NCBI GenBank assembly: GCA_000934665.2
Contig: JYFJ02001203.1
Span: 1 to 64,000 of the forward strand
Origin: Catajapyx aquilonaris
Taxonomy: Eukaryota
Direction: 5' to 3'
Length of the DNA stretch: 64,000 bases
Shown: piece after piece, positions 31,901 through 59,900 of the stretch
How the letters are laid out: the number at the start of each line of letters is the position of its first letter
How positions within the stretch are numbered: position 1 is the first letter of the stretch
Notes under the pieces: generated by a model
What the model was told of the DNA's origin: nothing
Database searches by the model: none
Seen by the model: only the letters and a program-made list of their open reading frames with translations
Position numbers and translations under genes: made by a program

Positions 31901-34900
31901 GTCCTTCGTTTTGCTCAATAGTTCGCTGGTCGCAGATCTCGTTGTCAATCAGAGGATCATTTTGTGTAGTGGTATCAATTTGTCTGAGAAGGCTTGTTAC
32001 TCAGATAATAAAATCCAAACCCTATTTGTGAAATATCCTGATAAGTATGCTTCCCTTCTTGCAGCCTTGCACTTTTAATTGAAAATGTTGCCGTGAAAGA
32101 ATTGAATGAACGATCTTCTGGGATGTGACAGGCAATAGAAGTGTCCTGGGCTCAGGGCTGTATCCGCACCGTAGAACACGTAATGCATTCATTTGACTAA
32201 TAATAATTTTCACAGCTATCGTGATAATGCTGTGCTTAAAAACCTCGCCTTATACCAGCATACCTCGCTTAGACCGGCATTCTGGTATAGCCACCAGATC
32301 ATGCATTTCTAAAAACTGGTCGACCTCGTCACCTAGACTATGCCGGCATGCCGTTTTAAGTGAGGTAATACTGTATTTTCCTTCTGTATGCACACTTCTA
32401 TCCTTTTATATTCCTTTGAAGTAATTGTCAGTTAACTGGCATGCAAAATGATCAGCTATAGTTGCCTTCTGTGTGCCCATGCCCTCAGCTTTGCTAACAC
32501 CAGCATAATTATCATAATACTACTTTCATATTCCAGATAACGCAGAGCCTCACATGGTTAGTTCGGATGACATGTGATGTGGAAACAAACATTGTTGCCA
32601 TTGAGAGGATCAAGGAGTACTCTGAATTGTCTCAGGTAAATATATCTTATGACTATAATTTCAGCATAGTAGTACCTTTCATTGAATTCCACCAATATCT
32701 CTACTGATGCCACATGTACAGTAGTATAATATGTTATAACCAGGTTACAAAGAGAACACAAGATTCAAATCCTGGCCCCATCAACTCCACTTGGTTGTGT
32801 CTTTCCTACTTTTCTACCAAGGTCCCCCACCTCCCCCCAAATCCTTGGACTCTCCAGCCAGACCCACTCCTCTCACCATGCCTGAGAGCAGTTCCCAAAT
32901 ACATTCAAGCGGGATGCAATTCAGACACACCTGCCCTAGATGGCAGAAAGCCATTTGCTTATGGGCACTGCATTAAATAATACACTTTTATATTCCAATT
33001 TCAGGAGGCACCATGGAAAAGAAATGATATTCAGCTTCCTGAAGTTTGGCCAATGGAGGGCAGGGTTGAGTTTGATAATTATGCAACCAGGTACAGAGAG
33101 GGCCTGGACCTGGTGCTGAAGGGAATAAGCTGCGTGGTGGAGGGAGGGGAGAAGGTGGGGATAGTTGGGAGGACAGGGGCAGGCAAGTCCTCCCTGACCC
33201 TGGCCCTCCTTCGCATCATAGAGGGGACAGGGGGAAGGATCCTGATTGACGGGGAGGAGATAGGGAGGCTGGGGCTGCACCAGGTCAGGGGGAGGCTCAC
33301 CATCATCCCACAGGACCCAGTGCTCTTCTCGGGGACACTCAGGCTCAACCTGGACCCTTTCAACAAGTACACCGACCAGCAGGTCTGGGAGGCACTGCAG
33401 CATGCCCATCTCAAGGCTTACGTGACGTCACTCAATGCTGGCCTGCAGCACGAGGTCACCGAGGGAGGGGAGAACTTGAGGTAAGGAGCAATCAGTTACA
33501 CAGCACTAGGTGGAAACTGAACTTGGTCTGGACCCGGTCTGTACCCAGTCTACTTTCTGGTTACTTGGCACAGTACCAGAGATGCTCACTGTTTTTTTTT
33601 TTTTTTTTTTTAAATGTACCCCGTGATAGGGCCATAGGCCCTTATAGGGGAGTGGAATACCACCATTTTTCCTTCAATTTTCTATTTTTCTTCTAACTCC
33701 GGTGCAAGGATGAAAGGACATGGGGTAAGGGTAGGGATTTTTTGGGGAGGGAACATAGGTGCAAGTGCAATGTCTACAAATGGGTCATGTGCTGTTCCCC
33801 AGGAGGTTAGGTTGCCAGACACCTCCTTGGTGCAGGTCAGAGACCCTCCTGACGCAGGTGAAAGGAAAGTTCCCCAGGCGGGGATCGAACCTGGGGCCTT
33901 TCACTCAGCAAGCCGAGACGTTACCATCTCGGCCACCACACCTCCCCCCAGAGATGCTCACTGGCTGTCTGTACAAGTGATCATGCAGTCAGTCAGTTTG
34001 TATCTCGGAATTGGGACAACTGTAATAATAATAATAATAATAATAATAATAATGATAATGATAATGATAATAATTGGGTTAGGGCACCGTCCATTTTTAA
34101 TGGGCATCTGGCATGGTACCTTTATTGCCTTGTAACCCTTAACTAGTAACGTGGGGTCATTTTTGACCCCAAGCTTGCGGAAATTAGCACTGTCAAATAA
34201 CTGGTTAATCAAGAGCCAAAAGCTTCTGTGTATTCCTCGATCACATCTTTGTTTATGTGTTAATAACCTTTAAATTTTTCAAAAAAAATTAATAGCGGTC
34301 CAAAAACGGCTATAACGAAGGTGATGTGCGGCTGGGGTCAAAAATGACCCCACGTTACTAGTTACATTTGGATTCCTCATTCCTCTTGGATTCATGCCTG
34401 CCAGTGAGAAGCTTCTATTTTTTTTGCTTCAAACGGTCAATGCAGTTACCTCTATCGATGAAATTTGTAGTCATCAGCCTTAGATACTTTACAATACAGG
34501 TGGCACGCCATGTACTAATGGCAAACCTGTCATAGACGATGCAATAATAAAGTTTTTTGCCCGAGATATTAACCCTGTACTGCACACATTTAGGATTGTG
34601 GGAAGAAAAAAATTCTAACGCCTTTTTTTCATCATATGCGACGTAAGGATGGTTTTTATTATGTTTTGGTCATCTCTGACCCAATGACTTTGAAGTTACA
34701 CCGGGTGAGTCAAAAGTCATGGCGAGTATTTTTTTATTCAAAAATGGTAACACATACAGAGATGACCTTTGCTAAGTTTTGAAGGTCCGGTGATTACAAT
34801 TTCGTCTGATAAATAGATGGCATCCATATCGCAAAGGGGACCAGAAAACTAAAGGCGATCATAACCCCCACCCTTCCACCGTCTCATGCAGCTCGGGGTG

Positions 34901-56900: not shown

Positions 56901-59900
56901 CCAAGTCAGGGGGAGGCTCACCATCATCCCACAGGACCCAGTGCTCTTCTCGGGGACACTCAGGCTCAACCTGGACCCTTTCAACACGTACACTGACCAG
57001 CAAGTCTGGGAGGCACTGCAGCATGCCCATCTCAAGGCTTACGTGAAGTCACTCAATGCTGGCCTGCAGCACGACGTCACCGAGGGAGGGGAGAACTTGA
57101 GGTATAAGAGAATCTTGGACTTTCAATGACTGGTGCTGCATTATAATGTGTGTGCTGTAATCAGTAGAGTCCGGATATTTAGACAAAGGCCTATTTACGA
57201 GGAGTGATCAAAAAGTAAGGTCTCCAAGGCTGTAACCTTTATTCTGTATGAACGCAAATGACAAAACTTACAGGGTACATGAGGACAATGGACATCTACT
57301 TTTCTACATAGTTTCCACTCCGAAGAACGCACTTATCCCATCGCCAGACCAGTTTCTCAATCCCTTCCCAATAGAAAGGGGTGCCCTGTTGACAGCACCA
57401 GTCACACAGCCTTCTTCACCTCATCGTCGCTTCGGAAATGCTGACCTGCCATGTCTGCTTTCAGGGCTCTGAATAAGTGATAGTCTGTGAGGGCTAGGTC
57501 GGGACTATAGGGTGTGTGAGGAAGAACTTCCCAGTCGTATCCATTCAGCAAAGCCATGGTGTCCCTCGATGTGTCCGGACGGGCGTTGTCGTGGAGAAGG
57601 ATGACCCCAGCAGTGAGCAATCCTGGAAGTTGCGACTATCAATTCGGAGCGCAGTGACCCTGGCGAAGTTGCAGAAGGCCATCAGGTGGAAACGACCAGG
57701 ATTGCTCACTGCTGGGGTCATCCTTCTCCACGACAACGCCCGTCCGAACACATCGAGGGACACCATGGCTTTGCTGAATGGATACGACTGGGAAGTTCTT
57801 CCTCACACACCCTATAGTCCCGACCTAGCCCTCACAGACTATCACTTATTCAGAGCCCTGAAAGCAGACATGGCAGGTCAGCATTTCCGAAGCGACGATG
57901 AGGTGAAGAAGGCTGCGTGACTGGTGCTGTCAACAGGGCACCCCTTTCTATTGGGAAGGGATTGAGAAACTGGTCTGGCGATGGGATAAGTGCGTTCTTC
58001 GGTGTGGAAACTATGTAGAAAAGTAGATGTCCATTGTCCTCATGTACCCTGTAAGTTTCGTCATTTGTGTTCATACAGAATAAAGGTTACAGCCTTGGAG
58101 ACCTTACTTTTTGATCACTCCTCGTAGTTCCTTTACAGTTGGGATGGTTTTGCAAAGAGATCTATCCATTTCATAAGTACAGGATGTGGAAAATATAGGT
58201 TTTATATTGCCTAAAATTGACTATTTTGTGGTTTTGGGAACTATTTTGCCTATTCTGGCTTTTTGCCCCTTTTCATACCTACAGTATTTGGCCTTTCTTG
58301 GGATAGTTTTTGAACTTTTGAAGCAATTTCAGGACTTTTTGGGCCTATTATGGATCTATTTCTTGAAAGGCATGTTCGGTTTTTTTGCAGAGTATTTTTT
58401 GTGCTCCTGACAGGACGAAAACCGTTCAGAAGTAATACGAATCATGTTTCCGTGACTCGTATATTTAGCAAACATATTGTGCAAGTGGAAACTCGATATA
58501 AGCGGTCGAGTCCAAGGGATGTGGTGCTTGCTTGCACTTCGTGTCTTTTGCCCAAGTTTCGTGATTTCCTGTCAGTTTATCGTTATTATTCAGTTTTTGA
58601 TGTGGTTTGTGTCTTTATGTATTTATACTTTAGGCCTATAAAATTATTCTAGCTTTTTAATTTTCTGTAACATTATCCTCCATACGCCCGAAAAAGTAAA
58701 AATTTTGCAACAATTTTGTGCTTATTTGAGGTTTTTTTGTGCCTATTTAAGGGTTTTTTCGTGCCTATTTCGGGGTTTTTTCGTGCCTATTTCGGGGTTT
58801 TTTCGTGCCTATTTCGGGGTTTTTTCGTGCCTAAAAATCCGGACTCTCTTAATCAGTTTTCTTGATTTTTTTAAAACACCCTTAGTGTTGGTCAGAGGCA
58901 ACTGGTATGCTTGGCAAGGGCTCTCCTAAGGAAGACCAAGGTGTTAATCCTGGATGAGGCCACAGCTGCAGTTGATCTGGAGACAGACGACCTCATACAG
59001 CAGACCATAAGGAAGGAGTTTGCTGACTGCACTGTACTTACAATTGCACACAGACTCAACACCATCATGGACAATGACAGGTGGGATCATTTTTGTTACG
59101 TAATTGGTGTTGCAATGTATGATACCGGTTAAGTATATATGGTGTCTTAAGACGGTTAGTGTGAGGGCGTTTAGCAATGCCAGGCCGCTCTCTTTAAACT
59201 TCTATTTAATGTATGATACCGGCAAATAATTTGAAATAGTGCTATTGATGCAGGGTGTTTCAGAGTCACTGGTCAAGCGCGAGCGAAGGAGTGGGGAAAA
59301 ATCATAGGTGGCAACAACCCCGGTCGGTTTTATAAAACAATTAGAAATACGGCCGTAATCAATTTATTTATTACGGCCGTACGGTGTGACATCACATCCT
59401 TTCTGTTCGAATTGACTGGCGCGGACTAGCAGGTGCACTAGTGGGTTGAACCTGTTTGAACGGCTTTTTAGCCTTGCGGGTTGCACTGAAAAAGGCGCTC
59501 TCCTGCTATACTGGCATGGTACAGTACACATTACTGAACAGTAGTACACTACTTTGTACAGTACCCTTCCGGTATAGCAGGAGAGCGCCTTTTTCAGTGC
59601 AACCCGCAAGGCTAAGAAGCCATTCAACCAGGTTCTACCCACTAGTGCACCTGCCAGTCCGCGCCAGTCAATTCGAACAGAAGGGATTTGATGTCACTCC
59701 GTACGGCCGTAATAAATAAAATGATTACTGCCGTATTTCTAATTGTTTTTTAAAACCAACCGGGGTTGTCGCCACCTACGATTTTTCCCCACCCCCTCGC
59801 CCGCGCTTGACCCGTGACTCTGAAACACCCTGTATGTAATAGGCAGTGATCAAAGCATTTTGACACCCCACATGGTGATTTGAAGTCCAAATTTGCCTTA

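Follow-up and report, generated by a model that had tools for sequence, protein, structure and literature searches.

Near-identity of a GC-rich NBD2 exon tract in two old tandem ABCC1/MRP1-like genes of Catajapyx aquilonaris: a likely case of interlocus gene conversion

Two intact tandem ABCC1/MRP1-like genes, A and B, lie on the + strand of a 64-kb stretch of DNA from Catajapyx aquilonaris, the whole of which we call the window. The duplication that produced them is, judged from their sequences, very old. Nevertheless, they share a tract of 416–419 bp in NBD2 that we think is likely kept near-identical by non-allelic (interlocus) gene conversion, limited by the length of homology and biased toward G and C. 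The last homogenisation of the tract is recent relative to the duplication, with dS of 0.09 in the tract and saturation elsewhere. The host genome looks arthropod-like.

Two tandem transporter genes

Gene A (4192..39065, + strand) has 30 exons, of which exons 2–30 were modelled, and gene B (44929..60537, + strand) has 24. With a 1536-aa MRP1 homolog as the tblastn query, residues 27–1536 are matched in both genes, and the spliced models comprise 1509 and 1516 aligned residues, free of stops. In the spliced alignment of gene A the frame is open and GT-AG borders occur at all modelled introns but one; this one belongs to exon 1 of the P0007-guided model, which ends at GC. The placement of that exon is uncertain, as the two guide proteins disagree (~2467–2796). 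Exon 1 of gene B contains an ATG, and each gene has a stop codon one codon past its modelled end. Between the genes, 18 intron positions are exactly shared, 4 are nearly shared, and 6 occur only in A.

Both genes are colinear with MRP1 homologs of ~1,500 aa at 55–60% identity and have the full-length MRP1 layout: two membrane domains, two NBDs, and an N-terminal extension. Their closest solved relatives are in subfamily C, with ABCC2, ABCC1, and ABCC3 as the top matches in the PDB. On sequence grounds, A and B are MRP1-type full transporters of ABC subfamily C and putative multidrug-type exporters.

A sharply bounded tract within one exon

The first part of NBD2 is encoded by exon 27 of gene A (33005..33480, + strand) and its counterpart, exon 22 of gene B (56626..57101, + strand). 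These exons are 476 nt each, identical in boundaries and phase, and placed by the spliced models. Their translation contains GRTGAGKSS and IIPQDP, which we take to be Walker A and the Q-loop. Pfam ABC_tran (PF00005) is found in both exons above the curated cut-off (E 2e-15 and 5e-15). The exon of gene A matches residues 1277–1433 of ABCC2 in the PDB (E 5e-69), and matches of the NBD2 exon to ABCC2 (8rq3) and bovine MRP1 (5uj9) range from E 5e-69 to 2e-64. In the protein collection searched, the best external identity for this exon is 72–75%.

The near-identical, GC-rich tract occupies 33065..33483 in gene A and 56686..57104 in gene B, both on the + strand, and consists of 416 coding nucleotides plus the GTA of the donor site. 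It starts just 5' of Walker A, includes the Q-loop, and ends shortly before the ABC signature. The first-pass annotation had counted 13 differences in 416 positions, 9 of them synonymous, and an exact recount of 33065–33480 against 56686–57101 agrees; the 4 nonsynonymous differences are T/A, K/T, T/K, and E/D. The edges of the tract are likewise as that annotation described them. Upstream, the first 60 nt of the exon (33005..33064, + strand; 56626–56685 in B) are diverged, with 21 mismatches in 60 positions, the last at 33063 and 33064, followed abruptly by 13 in 416. Downstream, identity reaches the end of the exon, continues through the GTA, and stops at the donor site. The introns are unalignable: ungapped identity over 100 nt on either side of the exon is 26% and 29%, and self-BLASTN finds no intron homology except dispersed repeats.

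Divergence inside and outside the tract

By the Nei-Gojobori method, the 138 codons of the tract have a pS of 0.087 and a pN of 0.013, whereas the remaining 1369 codons have a saturated pS of 0.740 and a pN of 0.271. Of the other exon pairs, the 28 with 5 or more aligned codons all show a pS of 0.44–0.95. The NBD1 exon pairs are among them: their proteins are 78–82% identical, yet their pS is 0.88–0.95. The strong synonymous divergence noted at first reading for the other exon pairs, NBD1 included, is thus borne out. Counted by codon, 9 of 133 synonymous-capable codons differ in the tract, compared with 403 of 753 outside it (Fisher p = 7e-27). A maximal-fragment permutation test gave an observed score of 111 and a permuted maximum of 30; none of 10,000 permutations reached the observed value.

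Outside the tract, A and B proteins are 57.4% identical (1368 columns). The highest identity of either copy to an insect MRP1 is 57–59.5% (106 homologs), so that A and B are no closer to each other than that. A tree of the protein outside the tract groups A and B as sisters (SH-aLRT 99; stem 0.17, tips 0.58 and 0.43). For the tract protein, their stem is 0.35 and their tips are 0.009 and 0.027. Since they are sisters in both trees, the partitions differ in branch lengths and not in topology. The A–B path is 0.037 in the tract tree and 1.01 in the other, a 27-fold shortening. Together with the step change in pS and the sharp boundaries, this shorter path gives good support to the inter-paralog gene conversion that had been proposed.

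Base composition and mutation pressure

The tract had been described as rich in G+C and in GGG runs, and it is both. Its G+C content is 59.6% in A and 58.0% in B, against 41–44% in the other exons, ~40% in the introns, and 48% (A) and 42% (B) in the first 60 nt of the same exon. Third positions show the step most clearly. GC3 in gene A is 106/138 (0.77) in the tract and 555/1369 (0.41) elsewhere (Fisher p = 2e-16); in gene B it is 99/138 (0.72) and 606/1369 (0.44; Fisher p = 6e-10). GC4 in gene A is 54/73 in the tract and 195/583 elsewhere, and the homologous NBD1 exons have a GC3 of 84/179 and 89/179. The per-exon check of silent divergence and GC3 that had been suggested therefore sets the tract apart from the other exons on both measures. 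In both copies, the stretch of high GC3 coincides exactly with the stretch of identity, and the flanks are without it. CpG is depleted in the tract (observed/expected 0.21–0.25).

GGG runs number 17 (A) and 16 (B) per 416-nt tract; the average for the window is 9.3 per kb. A regex scan places a canonical four-run G-quadruplex motif at 33142..33179 on the + (coding) strand of copy A, 1 of 8 canonical motifs in the 64 kb. The strict pattern has no match in the tract of copy B in the same kind of scan; position 33148 is G in A and A in B. A role for the G-quadruplex or the G-runs in starting recombination would be speculation.

Differences between the copies bear on the direction of change. Nine of the 13 sites have G or C in A and A or T in B, and 2 have the reverse, an asymmetry that is not significant alone (binomial p = 0.065). 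Among the contigs listed from public sequencing runs, those spanning 33104, 33133, 33148, 33241, 33247, 33250, and 33283 lack the letters of B. Six of these seven B-private changes are G/C to A/T, one is T to A, and none is AT to GC. Because they run toward A/T, mutation pressure would be AT-ward, and the high GC of the tract needs another force.

A modest shift in the NBD2 protein

Although colinear with ABCC1/MRP1-type proteins, A and B differ from them at several rare residues in NBD2, present in both copies, and at one position in particular. The first-pass annotation had flagged the motif LALLRIIE as having L where F is usual: both copies have L (codon CTT), a few residues past Walker A, where F is found in every one of the 106 aligned full-length MRP1-type homologs. 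The make-up of the tract protein as a whole leans away from residues with AT-rich codons: its FYMINK fraction, 0.188, equals the minimum among the 106 homologs (mean 0.233, sd 0.025), and the GARP fraction, 0.275/0.283, lies near or at their maximum (mean 0.250, maximum 0.283). The shift is modest, in that A and B reach the limit of the homolog range and do not pass it; for the remaining protein, both fractions are average in each copy.

Independent contigs and copy number

We compared the window with contigs from public sequencing runs: several runs of one sample and a run from a second study. A 775-nt contig, present without differences in 3 of 3 DNA runs of the one sample, covers 32301–33075 and joins the upstream intron of gene A to the first 71 nt of the exon. 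Among the contigs listed, none bridges the 5' boundary of the tract with at least 31 letters on each side, and none bridges its 3' exon–intron junction. The letters of B at 33227, 33366, 33373, 33382, and 33426 are present in contigs. A contig from the second study, X5 (33086–33405), has the letters of B at 4 sites and those of A at the remaining 7 that it spans; such a mosaic is the pattern that conversion predicts. The contigs contain a third haplotype, a mosaic that is neither A nor B.

Summed contig word depth in the tract is 163 in X1 and 160 in X2, both at 33366–33382, and 101 in X4, and the single-copy flanks have depths of ~31, 27–32, and 13–18, respectively. A tract depth ~5 times that of the flanks suggests ~5 copy equivalents, an indirect measure of copy number since contigs collapse variants, and hints that the tract is common to further copies. 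The involvement of further paralogs, raised as a possibility in the first-pass annotation, gains tentative support from this depth and from the mosaic third haplotype.

Interlocus gene conversion as the proposed explanation

We infer conversion as the cause, along with its recurrence, its GC bias, and its dependence on homology length. A break in one copy would be mended with the other copy, or else a further paralog, as template, and this repair would be possible only in an uninterrupted block of high identity. The longest uninterrupted coding block shared by A and B is 477 nt, followed by blocks of 219, 213, and 201 nt. The location of the tract in the longest exon, correctly given at first reading, is thus relevant to the mechanism: because the 477-nt block alone is long enough and the others reach at most 219 nt, it would never have escaped conversion, while the shorter exons and the introns did. 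Heteroduplex cannot extend into an unalignable intron, which would account for the end of the tract at the donor site; its upstream limit may be set by coding sequence that had already diverged there.

Repeated repair biased toward G/C would have raised GC3 from ~0.42 to ~0.75 in the NBD2 block only and may have pushed some amino acids toward GC-rich codons, including the change from F to L (CTT). Conversion of the tract is probably long-running and GC-biased. This part of the earlier claim stands as the best reading of indirect evidence: GC3 that matches the tract, the amino-acid shift, and the AT-ward changes of B. A single recent event from an already GC-rich donor exon would give the same A–B comparison. 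Possible, though doubtful, is the stronger proposal of a very long-lived "conversion island": a tract evolving in concert since the ancient duplication, perhaps across 4–5 ABCC paralogs, for the sole reason that its exon block is the one above the homology threshold.

Alternative explanations

The source of the shared sequence may lie elsewhere. A third, GC-rich ABCC paralog could have overwritten A and B in a single recent conversion or a small number of them, in which case the GC richness would reflect the history or location of the donor and not a long-term bias at this locus. The ~5 copy equivalents and the haplotype that is neither A nor B would fit such a donor, and the asymmetry of 9 against 2 sites would fit overwriting of A and B at different times; however, contig depth is indirect where variants are collapsed. 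The tract protein puts A and B in the same unresolved arthropod-MRP1 position as the rest of the gene, which excludes a donor from a different ABCC subfamily, and a donor segment that is GC-rich up to the same exon border would still have to be explained. We consider this origin unlikely; even so, it would still be gene conversion among paralogs. A template of reverse-transcribed paralog mRNA, also suggested in the first-pass annotation, finds no support and is improbable. It would explain the end of identity at the donor site, and gene B is without 6 of A's introns; in the classical model such losses arise by recombination with cDNA. However, the adjacent exons are unconverted (pS 0.60 for A26/B21 and 0.64 for A28/B23), both flanking introns are kept in both genes, and the tract begins 60 nt into the exon. 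The 3' border is equally expected of a genomic donor whose intron is unalignable, so a cDNA template adds nothing.

Explanations that dispense with exchange fare worse. Extreme purifying selection on the nucleotides themselves, through an overlapping frame, a structured RNA, or an exonic regulatory element, is very improbable. An antisense stop-free frame of 163 codons (32936–33427) does cover most of the tract, but antisense frames can be expected to stay open where coding sequence is GC-rich, and this one runs into the intron and ends elsewhere than the tract. The tract RNA folds no better than its shuffles (z = 0.13; 55 of 100 fold at least as well), and two Rfam matches are far under the gathering score (22.8 against 69 and 17.9 against 55). 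Such constraint would neither raise GC3 nor give a step boundary within an exon, and the equally conserved NBD1 exons are saturated at synonymous sites. Least credible of all is a chimeric join or a collapsed repeat in the assembly. Short-read assemblies can mis-join near-identical repeats, and no listed contig links the tract to either downstream intron. Against this, 13 sites distinguish the copies, both copies lie in frame within genes that need the exon and are complete in every other respect, and an assembler cannot make 97% identity out of sequences ~70% alike. Moreover, per-run contigs repeat the upstream intron of A and the exon start without differences in all 3 runs of one sample, the letters of B at 5 sites occur in contigs, and the tract is also found in the run of the second study.

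Comparison with known systems

Interlocus gene conversion of the kind proposed here has mammalian counterparts. The part of PMC2720389 used here describes BMP8A/B, DDX19A/B, and TUBG1/2, old pairs with mosaic concerted evolution by ongoing conversion, whose duration of >100 million years was obtained from orthologs. Like A and B, they are tandem or nearby old duplicates with parts >97% alike and others diverged, with significantly higher GC3 in the converted parts and positive GENECONV-type tests. Unlike A and B, where part of one exon is homogenised, the introns are unalignable, and the remaining gene is saturated at synonymous sites, their homogenised regions, as described there, cover several exons and introns.

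In human duplicates, according to the portion of bioRxiv 10.1101/135152 on which we draw, non-allelic conversion is GC-biased, has an estimated mean tract of 250 bp, and slows with divergence until the copies "escape"; converted regions have 48.9% GC against 39.6%. The tracts there, as in A and B, are a few hundred bp long and GC-richer, but the contrast in A and B is much larger (GC3 of 0.72–0.77 against 0.41–0.44), the setting is arthropod-like and not mammalian, and one block is unescaped while all around it has escaped. A minimal efficient processing segment of >200 bp in mouse and 337–456 bp in human is given in the part of PMC3966225 consulted. The tract lies in the sole uninterrupted block above ~220 nt, a comparison of mammalian thresholds with an arthropod-like host. 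With the association reported there between G-runs or non-B DNA and converted tracts, the tract shares its G+C richness, its many GGG runs, and its four-run motif; unlike the description in that source, CpG is depleted (0.21–0.25) and not enriched.

Implications for ABC transporter evolution

The process is already well known; the value of this case lies in its clarity and in a warning for annotation, not in a new mechanism. ABC transporter trees based on NBD2 would date the duplication of A and B as recent, and the rest of the gene shows it to be ancient. The pair would be a sharp natural example of two ideas for which the usual arguments are statistical: that conversion between diverged paralogs lasts only in uninterrupted homology above a threshold length, and that biased repair can carry base composition, and even protein sequence, far away from local equilibrium. 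Should the tract be common to further paralogs, a whole detoxification family would evolve as a unit in its NBD2 core while its substrate-binding membrane domains diversify. If, in addition, the tract has been converted ever since the ancient duplication, exon–intron architecture would decide which part of old paralogs never diverges, and GC-biased repair would have had the strength to fix changes at catalytic-domain positions that otherwise do not vary. For an arthropod-like genome, the two genes would then be a natural experiment on what biased conversion does to an essential ATPase site, whether by degrading or by reshaping it.

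Two MRP1-like genes and their exon structure

A tblastn search with P0007, a 1536-residue MRP1 homolog retrieved in a protein search with the NBD2 exon, gave two complete and colinear sets of matches on the + strand, at ~4.2-39.1 kb (gene A) and 45.1-60.5 kb (gene B). Gene models were built with a purpose-written spliced protein-to-genome aligner. Gene A comprises 30 exons and gene B 24; both have open frames, and in both a stop codon lies one codon past the modeled end. Introns are GT-AG in all but one modeled case. The exception is exon 1 of the P0007-guided model of A, which ends at GC; this exon is uncertain, and two guide proteins disagree on its place. 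Intron positions are exactly shared between A and B in 18 cases and nearly shared in 4, while 6 occur in A only (+ strand, after the A exon ends at 13327, 13540, 14800, 19319, 31099, and 38719). Three of these six are short (66, 70, and 83 nt), and the A-only introns may reflect either loss in B or gain in A.

The exon of interest encodes the first part of the second nucleotide-binding domain (NBD2). It spans 33005-33480 in A (exon A27) and 56626-57101 in B (exon B22), on the + strand, with the same length (476 nt) and phase in the two genes. A PDB search matched it to ABCC2 residues 1277-1433 and gave ABCC2, ABCC1, and ABCC3 as the closest solved relatives (E 5e-69 to 5e-61); Pfam found ABC_tran in both copies.

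A near-identical tract within the NBD2 exon

Most of this exon is shared almost unchanged: 33065-33480 in A and its counterpart in B, 56686-57101, differ at 13 of 416 positions (9 synonymous, 4 nonsynonymous). The borders of this tract are abrupt. The preceding 60 nt of the same exon hold 21 mismatches, the last two at 33063 and 33064. At the other end, identity runs on through the donor-site GTA and then ends. Over 100 nt on each side, the flanking introns are 26% and 29% identical in ungapped comparison, and self-BLASTN revealed no intron homology between the genes beyond dispersed repeats.

Silent divergence was estimated by the Nei-Gojobori method from 1507 aligned codon pairs. Across the 138 codons of the tract, pS is 0.087 and pN 0.013; across the remaining 1369 codons, pS is 0.740, which is saturated, and pN is 0.271. 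Every other exon pair has a pS of at least 0.44. The NBD1 exons share 78-82% of their residues, and their pS is 0.88-0.95. Of the same-residue codons able to vary silently, those that differ number 9 of 133 within the tract, against 403 of 753 in the rest of the alignment (Fisher p = 7e-27), and the maximal-fragment score of 111 was reached in none of 10,000 permutations, the top permuted score being 30. The near-identity, borders, and GC-richness described in the first-pass annotation, made by a model from sequence alone, are confirmed, and both silent divergence and third-position GC (GC3) set the tract apart from the rest of the two genes.

Outside the tract, the lowest pS values (0.55 and 0.44) belong to exons A22-A23 and B18-B19 of TMD2 (24911-25269 and 55570-55833). 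In 24 of 37 cases their silent codons match, a larger share than in the other coding sequence outside the tract (350 of 753; uncorrected one-sided binomial p = 0.019). The excess may be noise or what is left of an older conversion patch that has decayed.

Base composition and amino-acid content

The G+C content of the tract is 59.6% in A and 58.0% in B, while other exons lie at 41-44%. GC3 is raised in both copies: 106/138 in the tract and 555/1369 in the rest of A (p = 2e-16), 99/138 and 606/1369 in B (p = 6e-10). At fourfold sites in A, 54 of 73 are G or C within the tract and 195 of 583 outside. The homologous NBD1 exons have GC3 values of 84/179 and 89/179. The raised GC and the identity between genes cover exactly one and the same stretch, in both copies.

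The tract contains 17 runs of GGG in A and 16 in B, and in A glycine is written GGG in 12 of 19 codons of the tract versus 7 of 72 elsewhere. A special skew of G over C was considered and rejected: the third-position G:C ratio is ~1.4 inside and outside alike, so the runs come from glycine, arginine, and glutamate codons together with high GC3. The observed/expected ratio of CpG is 0.25 (A) and 0.21 (B) in the tract, 0.29 and 0.30 in other exons, and 0.54 in the whole window. Depletion of CpG in coding sequence fits germline gene-body methylation.

The encoded protein is shifted as well. Its FYMINK fraction, 0.188 in both copies, equals the minimum of 106 homologs (mean 0.233, sd 0.025), and its GARP fraction is 0.275 and 0.283 (homolog mean 0.250, maximum 0.283, n=106); outside the tract both proteins are average in these respects. 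At tract positions where both copies depart from the homolog majority, FYMINK residues were lost 8 times and gained 3 times, and GARP residues gained 6 times and lost 3 times. The unusual LALLRIIE noticed in the first pass is real: both copies have a leucine, encoded by CTT, where 106 of 106 homologs have phenylalanine.

Of the 13 differing sites, 9 have G/C in A and A/T in B, and 2 show the opposite arrangement (binomial p = 0.065). Contigs from public sequencing runs show A's letters at seven sites (33104, 33133, 33148, 33241, 33247, 33250, and 33283), where B's letters look private to B, a tentative reading in that the contigs are collapsed. Six of these apparently private changes run from G/C to A/T and one from T to A. 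Polarized in this provisional way, they suggest that mutation pressure is AT-ward and that high GC3 is therefore not the mutational equilibrium. Raised GC3 is a well-established mark of those parts of old duplicates that evolve in concert, and it is significant for DDX19A/B and TUBG1/2 (PMC2720389); human converted regions have 48.9% GC versus 39.6% in matched unconverted regions, according to passages of a preprint (10.1101/135152).

Age of the paralogs

The A and B proteins are 57.4% identical over the 1368 columns that lie outside the tract. Their highest identity to any of 106 full-length MRP1 homologs is 57% (A) and 59.5% (B), so the two paralogs are no more alike than each is to the closest of these homologs. 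In the tract, 134 of 138 residues are the same, and identity to homologs averages 72%, with a maximum of 78%.

Trees were built with 26 of the 106 homologs, chosen for taxonomic spread, and the long-branched P0013 and P0004 were removed from the second tree. With the rest of the protein, A and B group with support 99 (stem 0.17, tips 0.58 and 0.43, path between them 1.01), within an unresolved polytomy among arthropod MRP1. With the tract they group with support 100 (stem 0.35, tips 0.009 and 0.027, path 0.037). Topology is concordant between the partitions; the depth of the A-B split differs 27-fold. The rest-of-protein path of 1.01 exceeds that between two decapods (0.66) and that between horseshoe crab and scorpion (0.64), a rough age scale only, as duplicates may evolve faster. 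Both of these splits, within decapods and between horseshoe crab and scorpion, date back hundreds of millions of years.

The closest external match to the exon has 72% identity among longer proteins (best 120 of 7997 passing E 0.001, from 8000 candidates scored) and 75% among exon-sized proteins (4487 of 4586 candidates passed). A close relative's version of the exon was found in neither search.

Contigs from public runs and copy number

Five public runs contain part of 31000-39100; four of them share a single sample, the fifth belongs to a second study, and none is recorded as RNA. Contigs of four of them (X1, X2, X4, and X5) were placed on 30900-39100 at 90% likeness. In X1, X2, and X4, a 775-nt contig matches 32301-33075 with 0 differences, confirming that in A the upstream intron leads directly into the diverged first part of the exon. 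This contig reaches just 11 nt into the tract, without bridging its border by the placement criterion. Within the tract, an X2 contig (33071-33365, depth 108) has one difference, B's G at 33227; an X4 contig (33251-33417, depth 101) carries B's letters at 33366, 33373, and 33382. The X5 contig, from the second study (33086-33405), is a mosaic of the A and B copies: it agrees with B at four variable sites (33227, 33366, 33373, and 33382) and with A at the seven others. Exons A28-A30 (38572-39100) are covered in X5 but lack contigs in X1, X2, and X4, a gap that may come from the filters, which remove conserved sequence.

At 33366-33382 the depths of the contigs listed add up to 163 in X1 and to 160 in X2, where 93 carry B's letters; bins of unique flank total 31-39 (X1) and 27-34 (X2). 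The tract thus has about five copy equivalents versus the two expected, and further copies probably lie elsewhere in the genome, to the extent that contig depth, an indirect measure, reflects copy number.

The A-specific contig extends to 33075, and the tract contig of high depth begins at 33071; with A and B alone, a break would be expected at 33065-33094. The shift may reflect another copy or allele with a slightly different border, or an artifact of graph simplification.

Repeats around the genes

An inverted repeat lies in the B intron at 57196-58126, starting 95 nt downstream of the near-identical exon, with arms of 441 nt that are 98% complementary and a spacer of 49 nt. Each arm carries the C-terminal portion of a transposase of mariner type, matching Mos1 and SETMAR (PDB, E ~1e-15); Pfam gave no match here at E 0.01. 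Extension of the tract into the GC-rich DNA 3' of the B exon (57300-58000) was rejected, this being an unrelated mariner remnant in inverted-repeat arrangement. Long palindromes can be fragile, and one might speculate that the repeat is linked to breaks near the tract.

Two other repeat families were noted. A dispersed repeat occurs three times in non-homologous introns (33593-33947, 46537-46894, and 18264-18569), with copies that are 86-91% alike; contig word depth over this stretch rises to ~360,000, marking a very abundant element. Blocks of a repeat of ~150-170 nt, tandem or interspersed, in both orientations and 72-88% alike, lie in two long A introns (5390-7520 and 21900-22630).

Alternative explanations

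The first pass had interpreted the tract as recurrent, GC-biased conversion between the paralogs, possibly through cDNA. This interpretation appears largely right, apart from the cDNA template, which is not needed. The neighboring exons are unconverted (pS 0.60 and 0.64), both genes keep the flanking introns, and the 5' border falls inside an exon. A third, GC-rich paralog as donor would fit the depth data, with their five or so copy equivalents; it would still be conversion, and merely shifts the question of the GC-rich segment onto another copy. The tract protein is placed like the rest of the gene among arthropod MRP1, which excludes a donor belonging to a different ABCC subfamily.

Two further readings dispense with conversion. 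Constraint on the nucleotide sequence itself is not supported: structured RNA was rejected on a fold z of 0.13 and two Rfam matches far under the gathering score (E up to 1), and an antisense open frame was rejected because its limits are unlike those of the tract. That the near-identity is an assembly artifact is very unlikely, given 13 copy-specific differences and the need of each gene for its NBD2 exon; an assembler could not make identity from sequences truly ~70% alike, and the contigs of the public runs also argue against it.

Homology length and a proposed maintenance of identity

When the coding sequence is cut at every intron of A or B, the longest uninterrupted shared block is the NBD2 exon, at 477 nt; the next are 219, 213, and 201 nt, then shorter. 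The longer the uninterrupted homology, the higher the rate of conversion, as stated in parts of a review (PMC3966225), which puts the minimal efficient processing segment at >200 bp for mouse and 337-456 bp for human. In human duplicates, excerpts of the same preprint (10.1101/135152) give a mean conversion tract of 250 bp and describe conversion slowing with divergence until "escape." The lack of homology past the donor site would then account for the 3' border. The 5' border, where poorly conserved linker coding sequence begins, would fit the same logic, although the sharp step there would also fit one recent event ending at that point.

The A and B pair differs from mammalian textbook pairs in 3 respects: the tract occupies only a portion of one exon, silent divergence shows an extreme contrast (0.09 versus saturation), and the jump in GC3 is large (~0.33). 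Among the titles and abstract openings listed for ABCC paralogs and gene conversion, none describes a conversion island in the NBD2 exon of an ABCC gene; a study of the avian ABCG2 paralogs found no conversion between them (PMC7362505).

The tract is best read as probable non-allelic gene conversion, accompanied by GC enrichment, between tandem duplicates of great age; the process is of a known kind. Sequences ~70% alike could not start converting, so identity would have been maintained rather than re-created. All other exons may have escaped conversion after their introns became unalignable, and the NBD2 block would never have escaped.
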